Assembly: GCA_043767805.1 (NCBI GenBank)
Contig: JAYUGC010000074.1
Location: forward strand, 1 to 33,537
From: Pseudomonadota bacterium
Lineage (GTDB): Bacteria > Bdellovibrionota > FAC87 > UBA2466
Direction of reading: 5' to 3'
Length of the DNA stretch: 33,537 nt
A program made the translations under genes and the position numbers. Numbering within the stretch: the stretch's first letter is position 1; each line of letters opens with the position of its first letter. Below are positions 3 through 21,856 of this stretch, piece after piece. The notes under the pieces were generated by a model. It was not told the DNA's origin. It did no database searches and worked only from the letters and a program-made list of their open reading frames with translations.

Positions 3-1499
3 GCACTCGCGACCGCGTCACCCGAGCTCGATAAGCGGTACGCGTTCGAGCACGTGGCGGTCGTAATCTTGAACGCGGATCAAGAGCCGGTGTACGCCGA
101 TCAAGTGAAGAGCTCTCTCATCGAGTGGCTCGATCGTCAGCTACGCTTTCAAATCATTTCTCTCGGCGAAGGCGTCGTGCAGAAAGCATTCCCCGGCGGC
201 GCCGCGCCTTCGCTGGGCGCGCCTCACTCCGAAGCGCTCGGTCCGTATCGCGCGCTCCTCACTCAGTGGGCCGGCGAAGGCATCGACGGCGTGGTCATGG
301 CGGAGATTCAAAAGAGCGAAGAGGTCTATCAGATTTTTGCCGCGCTTTTACTTCCCGCCACGGGCGAAGTCGTTTACTCGGTCGTCGTTCCCGTCGCGCA
401 AAGCCATCAGCTCGTCGGATTCGCCACCGCGGCGAAAGACGCCGCCGACCAGCTTTCCAATTCCATTCCTTTTGATGGAGCCATCGTGAAGCGGGAAGGG
501 TACCGCGTGATCTTGAACCGCGGAACGCCGAAGCTTCTCGTGGGGCAGCATCTCGCCGTTTACAGTCTCGAGCAGAATAGGGGCGGCCTGGCCTTTGAAG
601 AGACGGGAGCTATCGAGCTCACACGCGTAGAGCGCAATCTCGCTTTCGGCACCGTTCTCGTCGAAAAAGAGGGCCATTCAGTAGTGGCGGGAAATAAAAT
701 CCGTCTCAACCAGCCGGCCGTATACGCGCATCGCTTGCCGCTCGCGGGAGCAAATACCCGCGGTCCCGCCTCGATCTTTTCCAACGAAGTGACGATGCAA
801 AAGGGCGAGCTGGGAACGGTCAATGTCGACTTCGGCTTTTCGCTCGTGACGCTAGCTCTCGCGACCGCCAACAACACGGCTTCCAATTCGAAGACGGCGG
901 TTTACCCGGGCGCCTCTCTCCAGGGTGAGCTCTGGCTCACCGGCAGAATCTTCATGGACCTGGGCTTTCAGCTCGCGTCCGCCACTTTGACCACAACGGG
1001 CGGCGGGACCACTGAAAATCTAAATTCGTCTCTCTCCGATTTTCGCGGGTCGCTCGGTTATCGCCTGCTACTGACGCCTCGGAGCGAGGGCCCCACCGCG
1101 CGGTTCTCCTTGGGCTACACGAGCCACAAATTCACGATCGATCCGGCGCGCGATCCGCTGTTCTTCGGCAGCGCGAACTACAAAGGCCTTTCGCTGGGCG
1201 CGGGCGCCCGGCTTCCGCTGACCGATAAATGGGGATTAGGCGCCGATGTCTTCGCTCTAATTTTTCCGTCGCTCGACGAGGGCCCGATTACCAGCGGCGC
1301 GCAAGTGACTCAAGTCTCGGCTATCGAGTTTCTGGTGAAGGGTTACTACAACTTCACCCCCGAACTGGATTTAGAAGCCAAGATCTTGTTTCAGGGTTAC
1401 AGCGCGCAGTTCGCGGGCAGGGGAACTCGGCCCGTGTCGCTCCTCTCTTCGAGCCGCAGCTCGCGCCTCCTCTCGCTCGGCCTCTCTTACTATTTCTGA
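3..1499 (+). CDS. Outer-membrane protein, 5'-truncated by the window edge: periplasmic alpha/beta domain, FlgT-C-like beta domain and C-terminal beta-barrel
   Basis: The frame is open from position 3 (ALATASPELDK..., resembling a signal-peptide end). The C-terminal ~230 aa are amphipathic beta-strands ending LGLSYYF (terminal Phe typical of BAM substrates). Confidence 0.7.
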   Translation, partial: ALATASPELDKRYAFEHVAVVILNADQEPVYADQVKSSLIEWLDRQLRFQIISLGEGVVQKAFPGGAAPSLGAPHSEALGPYRALLTQWAGEGIDGVVMAEIQKSEEVYQIFAALLLPATGEVVYSVVVPVAQSHQLVGFATAAKDAADQLSNSIPFDGAIVKREGYRVILNRGTPKLLVGQHLAVYSLEQNRGGLAFEETGAIELTRVERNLAFGTVLVEKEGHSVVAGNKIRLNQPAVYAHRLPLAGANTRGPASIFSNEVTMQKGELGTVNVDFGFSLVTLALATANNTASNSKTAVYPGASLQGELWLTGRIFMDLGFQLASATLTTTGGGTTENLNSSLSDFRGSLGYRLLLTPRSEGPTARFSLGYTSHKFTIDPARDPLFFGSANYKGLSLGAGARLPLTDKWGLGADVFALIFPSLDEGPITSGAQVTQVSAIEFLVKGYYNFTPELDLEAKILFQGYSAQFAGRGTRPVSLLSSSRSSRLLSLGLSYYF

Positions 1500-1500
1500 T

Positions 1501-1857
1501 CTCGCCTTCCGGGCGTTCGATCCGGGGCGGTCACTGGATGCTGGTACAAGGTAATACCTGGCCCCTTACACTGGTCCTGGACGGGCAGGAGATATTTGAA
1601 ACCTCTCGCGATTCATTAGGATGTCGTGCGGTCTTTTTTCGTTCGAAGGCGCTTCGGTAGGAAAGCCGCTCACTTATCCGTGCTCCAGGTCCAGCGAAAG
1701 GGGCCAGGTATTACAAGGTAGGCTATTTTGATCTTGGCCTCACGGACCCCTCATTGAGATCGGGCTGGCGTTAACGAGCCGCCCTTCAGGGGAAGATCTA
1801 ATTGATTACCTCGTACCAGCAACCAGTGACTGGGCCGGATCGAGCGCCGAAGGCGAG
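1501..1857 (+). ncRNA. Candidate large structured RNA or nested palindromic element of unknown family
   Basis: 1501-1547 pairs with 1813-1857 (~42/45 pairs, two G-U on the + strand). 1551-1581 pairs with 1684-1714 (28/31). A third arm spans 1716-1811. No credible ORF. Confidence 0.6.
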
Positions 1858-2065: not shown

Positions 2066-2743
2066 ATGAAAGCGCAGCAAGTTCAATCCTATCGCGATCG
2101 ACTCCACCGGGAACGCGCCCACCGCGACGACTCCGACCCTCATGATTTAGTCGATTACCGCGATTCCTTCTCTCGCGTGTATTTTTCGTCGGGCGCTTTT
2201 CTAGCCGCCGAGTACGTGACTGAAACCGCGATGACCATGGTGCCTTCGGGCCTGATTTTCCCGCTCGGCTTTCTGATCTTCTGGGCGGTCTATTACACTT
2301 ATTACAAGCCAAGTTTTTTGGAGGCTCAGCTCTTTTTCCGGGAGCGCTGGAATTGGAATGCGATTCCCGTGGTCCTTCTCGGAGTCGCCATTTGGTTCGT
2401 TAAGGCGTCTTTGCACGATGCGGTTCGGATCGCAAAGTTTTGTCTCGGCGTCCGGAAGAAAGCGCCCACCCTCGCTCCCGCGCTCCAACGCGCGGGCACG
2501 CTCGCCCTCGTTTCAAAGAAAGCCGAGTTGCCGCCCGAAGTGAAAGCCGCGCTCGAAGATTTGGGCTTCGAAGGTTTAGTGAGGTGGGAACTCATCCAGC
2601 ACCGCTACCGGGTTCTGGCCAAGCGGTACCATCCCGATCTCAATCCGGAAATCACGCGCTCGGGTAACCGCTTCATGCGGCTCGACGCTTCCTATCGCCG
2701 GCTGGCGAGCGTGCGCCATCGCTACTTCATTTCTTCGAAATGA
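2066..2743 (+). CDS. Membrane-anchored protein with C-terminal J domain (class C DnaJ-like co-chaperone)
   Basis: Two hydrophobic segments, then ALEDLG...RYRVLAKRYHPDLN...FMRLDASYRRL with the HPD motif. Confidence 0.85.
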   Translation: MKAQQVQSYRDRLHRERAHRDDSDPHDLVDYRDSFSRVYFSSGAFLAAEYVTETAMTMVPSGLIFPLGFLIFWAVYYTYYKPSFLEAQLFFRERWNWNAIPVVLLGVAIWFVKASLHDAVRIAKFCLGVRKKAPTLAPALQRAGTLALVSKKAELPPEVKAALEDLGFEGLVRWELIQHRYRVLAKRYHPDLNPEITRSGNRFMRLDASYRRLASVRHRYFISSK

Positions 2744-9274: not shown

Positions 9275-10502
9275 AAAAGGGGCCTCCGATCTCCATTTAA
9301 AAGCCGGCCTTCCCCCGATCGTTCGGGTGAATGGCCGGCTTTACTATTTGGGCGATGACGCCGCCGATGACGTCTCTCGCCTGACCAATCCGCTCCTTTT
9401 CCAATTCGCTTATGCCCTCATGACCGAGCGCCAAGCCGAGCGCTATGAGAACGGCGAGGAAGTGGATCTCGGTTACGAAATCCCGGGAGCCGGGCGTTTC
9501 CGTATCAACCTCTGTCAGCAGCGCTCGAACCCGCGCTTGGTCTGCCGCTATATTCCCGACGTCATTCCGTCCTTCGACGAGCTCTGCTTGCCGTCGGTCG
9601 TGGGCGAGCTCGCGATGGTAAAACGCGGCCTCATTCTGGTTACGGGCGCGACGGGTAGCGGAAAGTCGACGACGCTTGCGGCCCTTATCGATCAAATTGC
9701 GAGAAACCGTTCCTGCCACATCGTCACCATTGAAGATCCCATCGAGTTCGTCTTCAAAGATCGTAAAAGCATCGTCACCCAGCGGGAAGTAGGCCTCGAT
9801 ACGAGAAGTTTCGTCGACGCTTTGAAGTACGCCCTTCGCCAAGATCCCGACGTGATTCTGGTGGGCGAGATGCGCGACTACGAAACGATTCACATGGCTT
9901 TGAACGCCGCGGAGACGGGTCACTTGGTGCTTTCCACTTTGCACACTGTGGATGCTCCCGAGACCATCAACCGCATTCTCGGCACCGTTCCGGGAGACGT
10001 TCAGCAGGCGGTGCGCTCGCAGCTCGCTTCCGTCATCGTCGGCGTCCTGTCCCAGCGCCTCCTTCGCCGCGCGGATGGCAAGGGCCGGATTCCCGCTCTG
10101 GAAATTTTGCTCAAGAACCAGCGCATCACCGACATGATTCTCGATCCGGCACGCACCAAAGATCTTCAGCGCGCCATCGGCGAGAGCCAAAGCTCGGGCA
10201 TGCAGACTTTCGATCAATCTCTCATGGGCCTCTTCCAGCAGGGCCGTATCACCAAGGAAGAAGCGCTCAACTACTGCTCCAACGTGCGTGATTTCCAGCT
10301 GCGTCTCGCGGGTATCGTGTCGGGAGACTGGCGCGAGAAGGAAGCGAGAGAGCAGCAGAAAGAAACAAGCCGCGCCGATCAGATCCAGCAAGTGCTCGAC
10401 TCCGAGAATGAAGAGCACAAGATCGAGATCGAAGGCCTCGCTACTGTTCCCGAGGAAACGGTCCTCGCGAAGCCCAAGGGCTTCTTCAAAGCGAAGAAAT
10501 AG
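9189..10502 (+). CDS. pilT: PilT/PilU-family type IV pilus retraction ATPase
   Basis: GASDLHL, Walker [53 protein letters not shown]. The likely start is ATG 9189 (GAGGA at 9176-9180). Confidence 0.92.
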
Positions 10503-11508
10503 AGTCGCCGACGCCCCGTTTGTAGAGAAAACCCACTTCGTCGACCACGTAACGGGGGACGAGGTAGCCGCTCAGCCGCGCCCTTAGGTCGTGATGGATT
10601 TGTAAGCCGCGCTCGCGCGAGACGTCGAAGTGCGCGGTTCCCGCCGCCCGATCGGGATGGTGGAGGTAGTAGGGAAGAATCCCAATCTCAAAAAGCTTTT
10701 CGCTGAGCTCCGCCAGGGTCTCGCGGCTGTCGTTTACGTCTTTGAGTAAAACCGACTGATTCAGCATCATCGCGGCGACTTGTTTTAGTCGCGAGCAAGC
10801 GGCCGAAGCTGCCTCGGTGATTTCCTTGCCGTGATTGAAATGAGTCACGAGCACCACTGGAAGGCGAGTCGAAGCGATGGCTCGCGCGAGGGCGTCCGTA
10901 ACTCGAGCCGGAAAGGTGACCGGTACTCGAGTGTGAATGCGCAAGCGCTTCACATGAGGGAGGGCGGCCAAAGCCGAAATGAGGTGCCGAAGCGTGAGGT
11001 CGGTCACCAAGAAGGGATCGCCTCCGGAGAGAATCACTTCTTCGACTTCGGGATGTTCGGCGAGATATCCCAAAGGCTCGGAAAAATCTCCTCCGAACAA
11101 GTCGGTCCGGAGCTCGTTCAAGAGGGACTTACGAAAACAGTAGCGGCAATAAAGCGAGCAATTGGGCGTCAGATGGAAAAGCGCGCGGCCCTGATAGCGG
11201 TGCGTGATACGCGGGGCCGGCTGGTGTTCCAAATCGGACAAAGGATCAGCCTTGAAACCCTCTACTTCGATGAGCTCCTCCAGGGCCGGAATGGCCTGAA
11301 GGCGGATGGGGCACTTGGGGTTCTTCGGATCGATGAGCTCCGCGTAGTAGCGCGGGAGGGAAAACTTGAACTTTTTCAGAACTCTATCGAGTCCGGCGGC
11401 CCTCTCTGGCGGTACCAGGCCGGCCTCCACCAGGTCTTCAGCCGAACGGAGGTTTCTCGCCCATTCCAGCTGCCAGGACGTTTCGGGGAGGGGGAGGGCC
11501 GGTTCCAT
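10486..11508 (-). CDS. KamA-family radical SAM protein, EpmB-like (short type)
   Basis: CSLYCRYCFRK, ILSGGDP, RIHTRVPV, NQSVLL, PYYLH, LSGYLVP. ATG 11508 is preferred over TTG 11526. Confidence 0.88.
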   Translation of the reverse strand: MEPALPLPETSWQLEWARNLRSAEDLVEAGLVPPERAAGLDRVLKKFKFSLPRYYAELIDPKNPKCPIRLQAIPALEELIEVEGFKADPLSDLEHQPAPRITHRYQGRALFHLTPNCSLYCRYCFRKSLLNELRTDLFGGDFSEPLGYLAEHPEVEEVILSGGDPFLVTDLTLRHLISALAALPHVKRLRIHTRVPVTFPARVTDALARAIASTRLPVVLVTHFNHGKEITEAASAACSRLKQVAAMMLNQSVLLKDVNDSRETLAELSEKLFEIGILPYYLHHPDRAAGTAHFDVSRERGLQIHHDLRARLSGYLVPRYVVDEVGFLYKRGVGDSISSL

Positions 11509-11578
11509 CCGCTGGGGGTACCACAAAACCGATTCCTAGTGTAGATTCCGTGCTTTGAAATTCCCCAAGGGGTAGTTC

Positions 11579-12955
11579 ATGACCGAGCAGAAAACACATC
11601 AAGGCGCCGCTCCCCAGCCCTACTCATATAAGTACACCACCGATTTTCGTGAGCCCGACTGGCGCCGCTTGCCGGGTTACAAAACCGTAACCGAAGCCGA
11701 ATGGAACGATGCCCTCTGGCAGCGCCGGAATATGGTGAAAAACGTTCCTCAGCTCAAAGCCGTGTTCGGCGATTTTCTGAACGACGAGCTCGCGAACGAC
11801 ATGCTCGCGGACCAGAAGCAGATGGCCACCATGGCCATGCTCATTCCGCCCCAGATGGTCAACACCATGAACGAAAAGGATCTCAAAAAAGATCCCATTC
11901 GCAATTACATGGCGCCGGTCCTTTCCGACCGCGAAAAAGTTTGGCCGAGCCATCCCATGGCGAGCCGGGACAGCCTTCACGAGCACGACATGTGGGCCGT
12001 CGAAGGGCTCACGCACCGCTACCCGACGAAAGTTCTCGCGGAAATTCTTTCAACCTGTCCCCAGTACTGCGGCCATTGCACCCGCATGGATCTAGTAGGC
12101 CAGAGCGTGCCTCAGGTCGATAAGCGGAAGTTCGCGACGGGACAAAAAGATCGTCTTCTCTTGATGCTCGATTATCTGAGAAAGACGCCCACCGTTCGGG
12201 ACGTCGTCGTTTCGGGGGGCGATATCGCCAATATGCCGGCGGCCGTTCTCGAAGAGTTCATCTCGAGCCTTCTCGACATCGAGAACATCCGGGACATCCG
12301 GTTGGCCAGTAAAGGCATGGCGGGCTTACCCCAGCATTTTCTCCAAGACGAAGTGCTCACGGCTTTCGACCGCATGGCGAAGAAAGCCATTTCTCGCGGG
12401 GTTTCCCTCGCGCTGCATACGCATATCAACCACGCGCAAAGCATCACGCCGCTCGTCGCGAAAGTCGCGCGTAAGCTTCTCGATATGGGCTTCCGTGATG
12501 TCCGTAACCAGGGCGTGTTGCTCAGAGGCGTGAACGATTCTCCGAAGCTTCTCCTGGATCTGTGTTTCAGGCTCATCGATCACGCGTGGATTACGCCGTA
12601 TTACTTCTACATGTGCGACATGATCCCGAACTCCGAGCATTGGCGCGTTTCGGTCGCCCGCGCTCAGAGTATTCAGCACGATATGATGGGCTACTTGCCC
12701 GGTTTTAATACCCCGCGCCTTCTGTGCGACGTGCCGTTCGTCGGTAAGCGCTGGGTCCACCAGATTCATTCTTACGATAAAGTGAAGGGCATCTCTTACT
12801 GGACGAAGAATTACCTGACCAGCATCGAGAAGGATCAGCCCGAGGCGCTCAACAAATTGTACGAGTACTACGATCCTATCGATACGCTCCCCTCCGAAGG
12901 CCAGGAATTCTGGCGCAAAGAGGGCGAGCGCTTCAAAAACGAGAAGAACCACTGA
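11579..12955 (+). CDS. kamA: Lysine 2,3-aminomutase-like radical SAM protein (long type)
   Basis: EGLTHRYPTKVL, CPQYCGHCTR, VVVSGGD, RNQGVLLRGVND, PYYFYMCD, DVPFVGK. Confidence 0.85.
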   Translation: MTEQKTHQGAAPQPYSYKYTTDFREPDWRRLPGYKTVTEAEWNDALWQRRNMVKNVPQLKAVFGDFLNDELANDMLADQKQMATMAMLIPPQMVNTMNEKDLKKDPIRNYMAPVLSDREKVWPSHPMASRDSLHEHDMWAVEGLTHRYPTKVLAEILSTCPQYCGHCTRMDLVGQSVPQVDKRKFATGQKDRLLLMLDYLRKTPTVRDVVVSGGDIANMPAAVLEEFISSLLDIENIRDIRLASKGMAGLPQHFLQDEVLTAFDRMAKKAISRGVSLALHTHINHAQSITPLVAKVARKLLDMGFRDVRNQGVLLRGVNDSPKLLLDLCFRLIDHAWITPYYFYMCDMIPNSEHWRVSVARAQSIQHDMMGYLPGFNTPRLLCDVPFVGKRWVHQIHSYDKVKGISYWTKNYLTSIEKDQPEALNKLYEYYDPIDTLPSEGQEFWRKEGERFKNEKNH

Positions 12956-21083: not shown

Positions 21084-21172
21084 CGACGGCCCCCCTCTTA
21101 CCTGCGATCCAGGGCCTCGAGAGGAGCTTTGTCAAAAAAAACCGTGGGGAAACGCTAACGCAGCGTTCAGAT

Positions 21173-21856
21173 CTACTTGAACGCCAGCCGGTATTGATTC
21201 GGCGGACCGAAGGAGATCTCCACGTGAATGGGATTTAATTTCCGGCGCAGATTGAAGATATGCACGTCGAGCGTCTTCGATCCGACCTTCACGTTTCCCC
21301 ATACCTTTTGCACGATGTCATTGCGAGTTACGGTGTGCTGAGGCGCTTCCTGAAGCAGGCTTAGAATCTGGAACTCCTTCGCGGTCAAAAGCGCGGAGGT
21401 GGACTCGTCGTGGTGCACGCGCATGGTGCTGGGATCGATCCGCAGGCCCCGCGGTTTCGAATAGGGGCCGGTGGCTTGAGAAGAAGGACGGTTCAAGATG
21501 AACTCGGTCTTTACGAGCAGCTCGCCCTTACCGAAAGGCTTGGTGATGTAATCCAAAGCGCCTTTTGCGAAGCACTTTCTGAGCGCGTCGGTGTCATCGA
21601 GCGAGGAAACCACCAAGAACGGGATGCCATCGATGAGGCTCGCTTCCGGTGATTCCAGGAAAGAAAGAAACGATTCACCGGGAAGACGAAGATCGCACAA
21701 CATGAGGTCCGGCTTGCCGTGAGGCAGGGCGGCACGCATCTCTTCCACAGAAGAAAGCAGCTTCAGCGCGTATTGATCGCCGAAGACGTTCTCGTAAACG
21801 TAACGTGCGCCTTCTTCATCCTCGAGGACCCAGACATTTTTGCGAGTATTTAACAT
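21173..21856 (-). CDS. OmpR/PhoB-type DNA-binding response regulator
   Basis: VLEDE, LCDLRLPG (phospho-Asp), DYITKPF, LTAKEFQIL, TLDVHIFNLRRKL. Confidence 0.93.
   Translation of the reverse strand: MLNTRKNVWVLEDEEGARYVYENVFGDQYALKLLSSVEEMRAALPHGKPDLMLCDLRLPGESFLSFLESPEASLIDGIPFLVVSSLDDTDALRKCFAKGALDYITKPFGKGELLVKTEFILNRPSSQATGPYSKPRGLRIDPSTMRVHHDESTSALLTAKEFQILSLLQEAPQHTVTRNDIVQKVWGNVKVGSKTLDVHIFNLRRKLNPIHVEISFGPPNQYRLAFK

Follow-up and report, generated by a model that had tools for sequence, protein, structure and literature searches.

A strongly folding 357-nt stretch downstream of an outer membrane protein gene: probably two non-autonomous mobile DNA repeats, one nested in the other

Introduction

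Among the foldback repeats described in bacteria, Correia in Neisseria, ERIC in enterobacteria, and BOX, RUP, and SPRITE in the pneumococcus are dispersed, intergenic and lineage-restricted sequences of 100-200 nt, able to form hairpins on both strands (for Correia and ERIC this is general background, and the comparison with them is a descriptive one). The REP/REPIN-RAYT systems are built of small GC hairpins that combine, in inverted orientation, into a larger one, and they are situated downstream of genes; typical REPINs are shorter than ~190 nt. Apart from this length, both descriptions also apply to the larger of the two repeats discussed below. As for the insertion sequences (IS), the elements of the IS1 family are recognized by target duplications of 8-9 bp (mostly 9 bp), short inverted ends and a length of ~0.8-1.2 kb, IS1 proper having two frameshifted ORFs. 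The assignment of a MITE to the IS that moves it has a precedent in Acinetobacter, where, according to the available text of PMC6382973, MITEAba12 was assigned to ISAba12 by their common terminal repeats and 9-bp duplications, the identity being confined to the repeats; moreover, the available text of a review on MITEs (PMC10969869) reports that pneumococcal repeats insert into one another.

The stretch analysed in the present work occupies positions 1501-1857 of a window of 33,537 nt (the whole stretch of DNA examined: contig JAYUGC010000074.1 of the Bdellovibrionota assembly GCA_043767805.1); positions given without a contig are those of the window. A sequence-only reading had proposed that these 357 nt are an undescribed structured non-coding RNA or else a folded non-autonomous DNA element. 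The second proposal is right in kind, with the difference that two elements are present: with a probability of roughly 0.85, the stretch consists of two mobile DNA repeats, both non-autonomous and one nested in the other, and is no single RNA gene.

Fold and Content of the 357-nt Stretch

The element starts 1 nt past the TGA stop codon of an ORF carrying an OMP beta-barrel domain, in agreement with the position first assigned to it, and is followed after 208 nt by a gene with a weak DnaJ-domain match (Table 1). In the minimum free energy (MFE) fold of the + strand, the outer helix (1501-1547/1813-1857) has 42 pairs, two of them G-U, which reproduces the earlier count of ~42 pairs out of 45 with two G-U pairs working on the + strand; the second helix (1551-1581/1684-1714) has 28 pairs, again as previously counted (28/31), and is returned by an inverted-repeat search as a 31-nt repeat with 90% complementarity. 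The third arm placed at 1716-1811 is present too, and corresponds to the centre of the outer repeat (see below) and not to a separate arm.

The MFE of the + strand is -195.2 kcal/mol, compared to -128.5 +/- 5.8 for 100 dinucleotide shuffles (z -11.5); the check on both strands suggested by the sequence-only reading gives -179.3 (z -12.2) for the reverse strand, so that no strand is favoured by folding. Such a behaviour is expected of inverted-repeat DNA and would not be predicted for a strand-specific RNA. The ORF list contains no ORF of note inside the stretch, as had been stated, and no promoter-like or terminator-like site is predicted within it; the comparison with Rfam, also recommended earlier, yields nothing usable, the only two matches of cmscan over 1300-2200 having E values of 1 and 2.6 and scores of 16-18 bits, to be compared with gathering scores of 38 and 196.

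Table 1: Coordinates of the features at the locus and of the transposase paralogues found elsewhere in the same assembly.
Feature	Position	Strand	Remarks
Upstream gene, OMP beta-barrel domain	3..1499 (5' end off window)	+	PF13505, E 8e-11; TGA at 1497-1499
Outer repeat, left part	1501..1553	.	Matches ~35 genome loci; boundary from the 9-bp duplication
Target-site duplication TACAAGGTA, left copy	1545..1553	.	9 bp
Inner MITE, 158 nt	1554..1711	.	TIRs ~1554-1581 and 1684-1711; no ORF
Target-site duplication TACAAGGTA, right copy	1712..1720	.	9 bp
Outer repeat, centre and right arm	1721..1857	.	69-86% identity to ~20 other loci
Downstream gene, weak DnaJ-domain match	2066..2743	+	PF00226, E 6.9e-6, just under cut-off
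Paralogue of the C43 transposase	C178:~10084-10914		IS1-like
Paralogue of the C43 transposase	C71:~11243-12073		IS1-like
Paralogue of the C43 transposase	C143:4-669		IS1-like
Paralogue of the C43 transposase	C159:~21139-21707		IS1-like

Composite Structure of the Stretch

The search of the stretch against its own assembly (G000; 4.52 Mb in 204 contigs, 57.9% G+C) splits the query into two parts with different distributions. Positions 53-211 of the query match only two other places, C18:32536-32694 (99%) and a copy on contig C44 (97%) truncated to 124 nt, while the remainder of the query (1-52 and 212-357) has counterparts of 69-86% identity on ~20 other contigs; the full composite of 357 nt is found once. 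When the inner element and one copy of the 9-bp repeat are removed, the remaining 190 nt can be aligned with 22 other loci (67-83% identity) with no break where the insertion took place; these loci represent unfilled sister sites. A small GC hairpin closes the outer repeat at either end (~1501-1515 and ~1845-1857), and between the first of these and the inner element lie the left arm and the target TACAAGGTA. Folded alone, the copy of the outer repeat at this locus reaches -115.4 and -109.4 kcal/mol on the two strands (z -11 and -12) and the inner element -76.4 and -69.8 kcal/mol (z -6.7 and -7.1); the strong, RNA-like fold of the whole on either strand is due to two nested sets of inverted repeats.

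The right junction between the inner and the outer element is also present in contigs assembled from four DNA runs of one study, one of which may be the source sample, and compared over 1000-2400 (a 69-nt contig in three of them and a 165-nt contig in the fourth), with at least 34 letters on each side; the contigs break at the borders of the repeats, and the left junction, with 29 letters, falls short of the 31 letters required to count as bridged. No joint skipping either element occurs in the contigs of the four runs, a result that carries no information on polymorphism, since rare variants are lost from contigs.

A likely history of the locus is that an older palindromic intergenic repeat of ~190 nt, with ~35 diverged copies in the genome, first settled directly after the stop codon of the OMP gene, and that a 158-nt MITE would later have entered its left arm at the target, duplicating 9 bp, its mobilization in trans being most likely due to the DDE transposase of an IS1-like element at C43:32576-33636.

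The Inner MITE and Its Probable IS1-Like Partner

The boundaries common to its copies define the inner element as a sequence of 158 nt with the ends ATACCTGG... and ...CCAGGTAT; once the duplication is set aside, its terminal inverted repeats (TIRs) measure ~28 nt, and no ORF of at least 40 aa is confined to it. The assembly contains three copies, one of which is truncated. Both full copies are flanked by a perfect 9-bp direct repeat, the one under study by TACAAGGTA and the second (C18:32537-32694, 99% identical) by its own duplication, CTTCTTTCA; the truncated copy on C44 was left out of this scoring. Two independent and perfect 9-bp duplications argue for transposition of the inner element. 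An 18-mer of the MITE end recurs at six loci among genome contigs and was discarded as a chance match, five of the occurrences lying in frames that spell QYLAPYTG, which we take to be the ATP synthase alpha subunit, and the sixth having no further similarity.

A fuzzy search of the assembly for the MITE end sequence retrieved an inverted pair 1061 bp apart (C43:32576-33636). This element has the termini ATACCTGGCCCCTT... and ATACCTGGTCCCCTT..., with inverted ends of ~24 nt, lies between the two copies of a perfect 9-bp duplication (CAGGTTCTA) and, unlike IS1 proper with its two frameshifted ORFs, contains a single ORF of 294 aa. Against the NCBIfam model NF033558 for IS1 family transposases, this ORF has an E value of 3.3e-15 and 56.6 bits (55-57), below the curated cut-off of 100, hence the label "IS1-like" used here; Pfam returns only weak InsA-type zinc-ribbon and HTH matches. 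Its length, inverted ends and duplication, together with the N-terminal Cys-pair/HTH region and a DDE-type body matching the IS1 model, are like those of the IS1 family, from which it departs in its score. Four paralogues (Table 1) are present in the same genome at 53-57% identity, all five proteins scoring below the NCBIfam IS1 cut-off, and ~370 database relatives of ~290 aa, with no precomputed Pfam domain, are unnamed or annotated as "transposase-like protein", many of them on contigs of 1-2 kb.

The right end of the MITE is identical to the left end of the C43 element at 19 of 20 positions and its left end at 14 of 14, with no similarity between the two beyond these 14-20 terminal bases. 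The common termini and the 9-bp duplications make the C43 element the likely mobilizer, and we infer that the inner element is most likely a MITE moved in trans by the C43 transposase, because the same kind of evidence paired MITEAba12 with ISAba12. With that pair as it is described in the available text of PMC6382973, the elements considered here have in common the small size, the lack of an ORF, the TIRs, the 9-bp duplications and an identity to the co-resident IS limited to the termini; they differ from it in that the likely IS partner is a distant, IS1-like one, that the MITE is GC-rich and not AT-rich, and that it has only three copies.

Two solitary ends, at C65:~9535 (- strand) and C194:~5046 (+ strand), resemble the terminus of the IS1-like element and the MITE, with [AC]TACCTGGCCTCCTTGGCTGG followed by a G-rich stretch, and may belong to another small derivative family.

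The Outer Palindromic Family

Iterated nhmmer searches of both strands of the assembly gave 71 matches, merged into 35 loci, of which 28 extend over at least 128 nt. The copies are 67-86% identical, the best pair reaching ~86%, and no near-identical copies are present. The observation expected of a DNA repeat in the sequence-only reading, dispersed copies without covariation, was made, covariation being negligible (see below), with the reservation that the copies are diverged and not near-identical. Shorter, hairpin-only forms were found by regular expression on contigs C9, C34, C62, and C100. A small GC hairpin, made of CGCGC and GCGCG around a variable loop of 3-5 nt, terminates the consensus and is present in inverted orientation at each end of most full copies; proceeding inwards, the consensus continues with TTCGATCCGG, an arm of ~35 nt (GGTCACTGGTTGCTGGATGCTGGTACGAGGTA), a degenerate palindromic centre around CGTTAACG, and the mirrored arm and hairpin. 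Five GATC sites, well above chance, occur in the ~190-nt consensus (TTCGATCC twice, TTGATCTT, GAGATCGG, and AGATCTAA).

The distribution of the family is apparently narrow. None of 40 related genomes, one of them from the same genus, contains the outer part, which was the part searched in them, and among 400 genomes across the phylum, a search in which only two candidates were scored per genome, neither the outer nor the inner family gave a convincing match, single short ones appearing at E values of 5e-4 and 7e-4. A 23-mer of the outer arm was retrieved at one metagenome locus with no family member, and was set aside as a chance match. Compared to Correia, ERIC, BOX, RUP, and SPRITE, the family has no sequence similarity, unusually long arms (~45 nt, so that nearly the whole element pairs) and GC-hairpin ends, and no TA or other duplication was found. 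A reading as integron attC sites was rejected, since the copies are homologous to one another and, instead of forming arrays, are spread over many contigs in the neighbourhood of housekeeping genes.

From their dispersal alone, we infer that the outer copies have been mobile. With TTCGATCC or the terminal hairpin taken as the anchor of each end, inspection of the flanks by eye revealed no consistent direct repeat; a repeat of 2-3 bp could be missed because the ends of the element are ragged. Similarly, no long element with outer-family termini was found in the assembly, which, being divided into 204 contigs, may leave a partner unassembled.

Pairs of outer copies in some cases bracket single genes: this is observed on C156 (the whole contig of 3589 nt), at C150:7336-10059 and at C38:3244-5860, the bracketed genes encoding the exonuclease VII large subunit, a Wzt-type ABC ATPase (ABC transporter) and an FTR1-cytochrome c protein. 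Four pairs of copies spaced by less than 3 kb were counted by eye, whereas a rough hand estimate gives fewer than one for 35 loci. No transposase lies between paired copies, the enclosed genes being housekeeping ones.

Orthologous Spacers in a Same-Genus Genome

The genome of a congener (G001), whose coding flanks are 72-82% identical to those of G000 at the nucleotide level, contains the outer element at none of six orthologous loci. Nor does any of these represent a clean empty site: an unrelated palindrome is present at one locus, other DNA of 1-4.8 kb at four, and the sixth locus is divided between two contigs. At the OMP locus, a convergent gene ends 2 nt past the stop codon of the OMP gene, and no such element is present. 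At the locus orthologous to the copy on C66, the spacer of 234 nt contains an unrelated palindrome of ~176 nt (G001:C33:14245-14420; z -9.2) with the motifs ACGTGGAC/GTCCACGT, which recurs at 70-84% identity at no fewer than four further loci of G001 and has no match in G000. These differences indicate that the spacers turn over, each species having its own foldback repeats.

Tests for a Selected RNA Structure

For 23 outer copies, the RNAalifold consensus has an energy of -24.1 kcal/mol, to which covariation contributes only -0.44. Double changes are seen in 11 of 27 pairs, mostly in the same three copies (C130, C156, and C108), which form one subfamily with matched changes on both arms. Several arm mismatches are common to many copies, such as ACC vs TAC beside GAGGTA, and are inherited from a master copy and not repaired. 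In co-directional gene contexts, mismatches of the G-U transition type number 54 in the sense and 56 in the antisense orientation. The complementarity of the arms is 0.732 within copies and 0.709 between copies (permutation p 0.03), a noisy comparison in which several arms are mis-anchored; this excess, together with the matched changes of the subfamily, may point to some pressure to keep the outer hairpin. Taken together, the results on covariation, G-U mismatches and conservation fit decaying mobile DNA, and nothing in them points positively to selection on an RNA structure.

Placement at Gene Ends and Alternative Explanations

The genomic context of the outer family was assessed against a rough gene set called from codon usage (3953 genes, 88% coding). 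All 35 midpoints fall outside the called genes, 8 of the loci overlapping a gene edge by 1-62 nt. Both neighbours are called at 30 loci, of which 16 lie between co-directional, 9 between convergent and 5 between divergent genes, compared to 61%, 19%, and 19% of the spacers genome-wide; the convergent excess is not significant at this number of loci. The element is nearer to the upstream stop than to the downstream start in 11 of the 16 co-directional spacers, and a stop codon reading into the element is found within 80 nt at 20 of 44 anchored ends; at 16 of these, it lies 3-31 nt from the anchor, the stop thus directly abutting the terminal hairpin, as it likewise does at the OMP gene. Such a placement could mean that insertions are tolerated there, or that the family has a preference for gene ends.

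These observations bear on the possibility that the outer hairpin has been co-opted, or tolerated, for an RNA-level role in the 3'-UTR (terminator-like, protecting the 3' end, or slowing ribosome release), which would be compatible with a mobile origin and would make the copy at the OMP gene one such site, now interrupted by the MITE. The exclusion from genes in a densely coding genome, the stops close to the anchored ends, the bias towards the upstream stop and the share of convergent spacers all speak for this role, as does the different palindromic repeat held by an orthologous convergent spacer of the congener; terminator-like roles for such repeats are also mentioned in the available text of the MITE review (PMC10969869). 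On the other hand, the hairpins have no following T-run and no terminator-like site is predicted at this locus, covariation is negligible and the G-U mismatches are balanced between the two orientations, the convergent excess lacks significance with 30 loci, and a position next to stops would equally result if purifying selection removed the insertions that hit promoters and genes. Both the role itself and its extension to the OMP locus are regarded as unlikely.

In a bolder version of the same idea, which we hold to be rather unlikely, the ~190-nt family and the palindromes of the congener would be selfish 3'-end hairpins homing just past stop codons. An enzyme so far unrecognized has to be posited in this case, because no target duplication, DDE partner or flanking RAYT was found for the outer family. 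If true, such hairpins would be T-tract-free structures acting at transcript ends or in ribosome release, and at 1501-1857 the insertion of a MITE would have disabled or remodelled one such functional hairpin.

A REPIN-like doublet has also to be considered, in which case the outer family would owe its movement, as single-stranded DNA and with no target duplication, to a RAYT (Y1) transposase. The small GC hairpins in inverted orientation at the ends, the hairpin formed by the whole element and the lack of a detected target duplication would agree with such an origin, and the genome does encode three PF01797-type proteins, two of them with clear RAYT-like motifs. None of the three Y1 genes, however, is flanked by the outer family: the one on C66 is flanked by a different repeat, the one on C86 has no outer family beside it, and the one on C84 runs off the contig, its missing end not being found elsewhere. 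In addition, the ~190 nt of the element far exceed the length of a REP doublet, and near-identical copies are lacking. The link to a RAYT was rejected on the flanks of the Y1 genes, and a REPIN-like nature is considered very unlikely.

A true REP-RAYT system is present in the same genome, in the form of a 25-nt hairpin, C[CT]AAAAGGTGTGTGGATACTTTTAGC, found at ~55 sites, mostly as inverted doublets 60-110 nt apart (e.g., C11:35215/35278, C14:5001/5094, and C21:17075/17158). Two inverted copies of it flank the RAYT-like Y1 gene at C66:16716-17468 (PF01797, 26.8 bits); the second RAYT-like gene, at C84:3-560, is the one that runs off the contig end. The first ~100 nt of contig C175 (1-~100) consist of a tandem 14-nt unit, GCTAAAAGGTGTGA, related to the stem of this REP-like hairpin.

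Finally, the proposal that the whole 357 nt are one undescribed large structured RNA gene, suggested by the very low folding energy and z-score, the absence of an ORF and the two G-U pairs that work on the + strand, has a probability close to nil, given that the reverse strand folds equally well, that two unrelated repeat families meet at a 9-bp duplication in a composite occurring once in the genome, that covariation is negligible and the G-U mismatches show no strand bias, that no convincing match was found in the relatives searched (40 genomes for the outer part, 400 for both parts), and that Rfam offers no usable match.

Conclusions

Nested repeats are already known in bacteria and, read as a MITE inserted into an older palindromic repeat, the 357-nt stretch is an ordinary feature. 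It carries a caution, in that an extreme intergenic folding energy here comes from nested inverted-repeat elements and not from an RNA gene, and it adds two new repeat families for annotators to mask. The inner element would provide a new example of the pairing of a MITE with an IS1-like element, whose transposase belongs to a poorly annotated clade. The outer family is of modest interest, its copies abutting stop codons, and so is the observation that two congeners have different palindromic families in one orthologous spacer.
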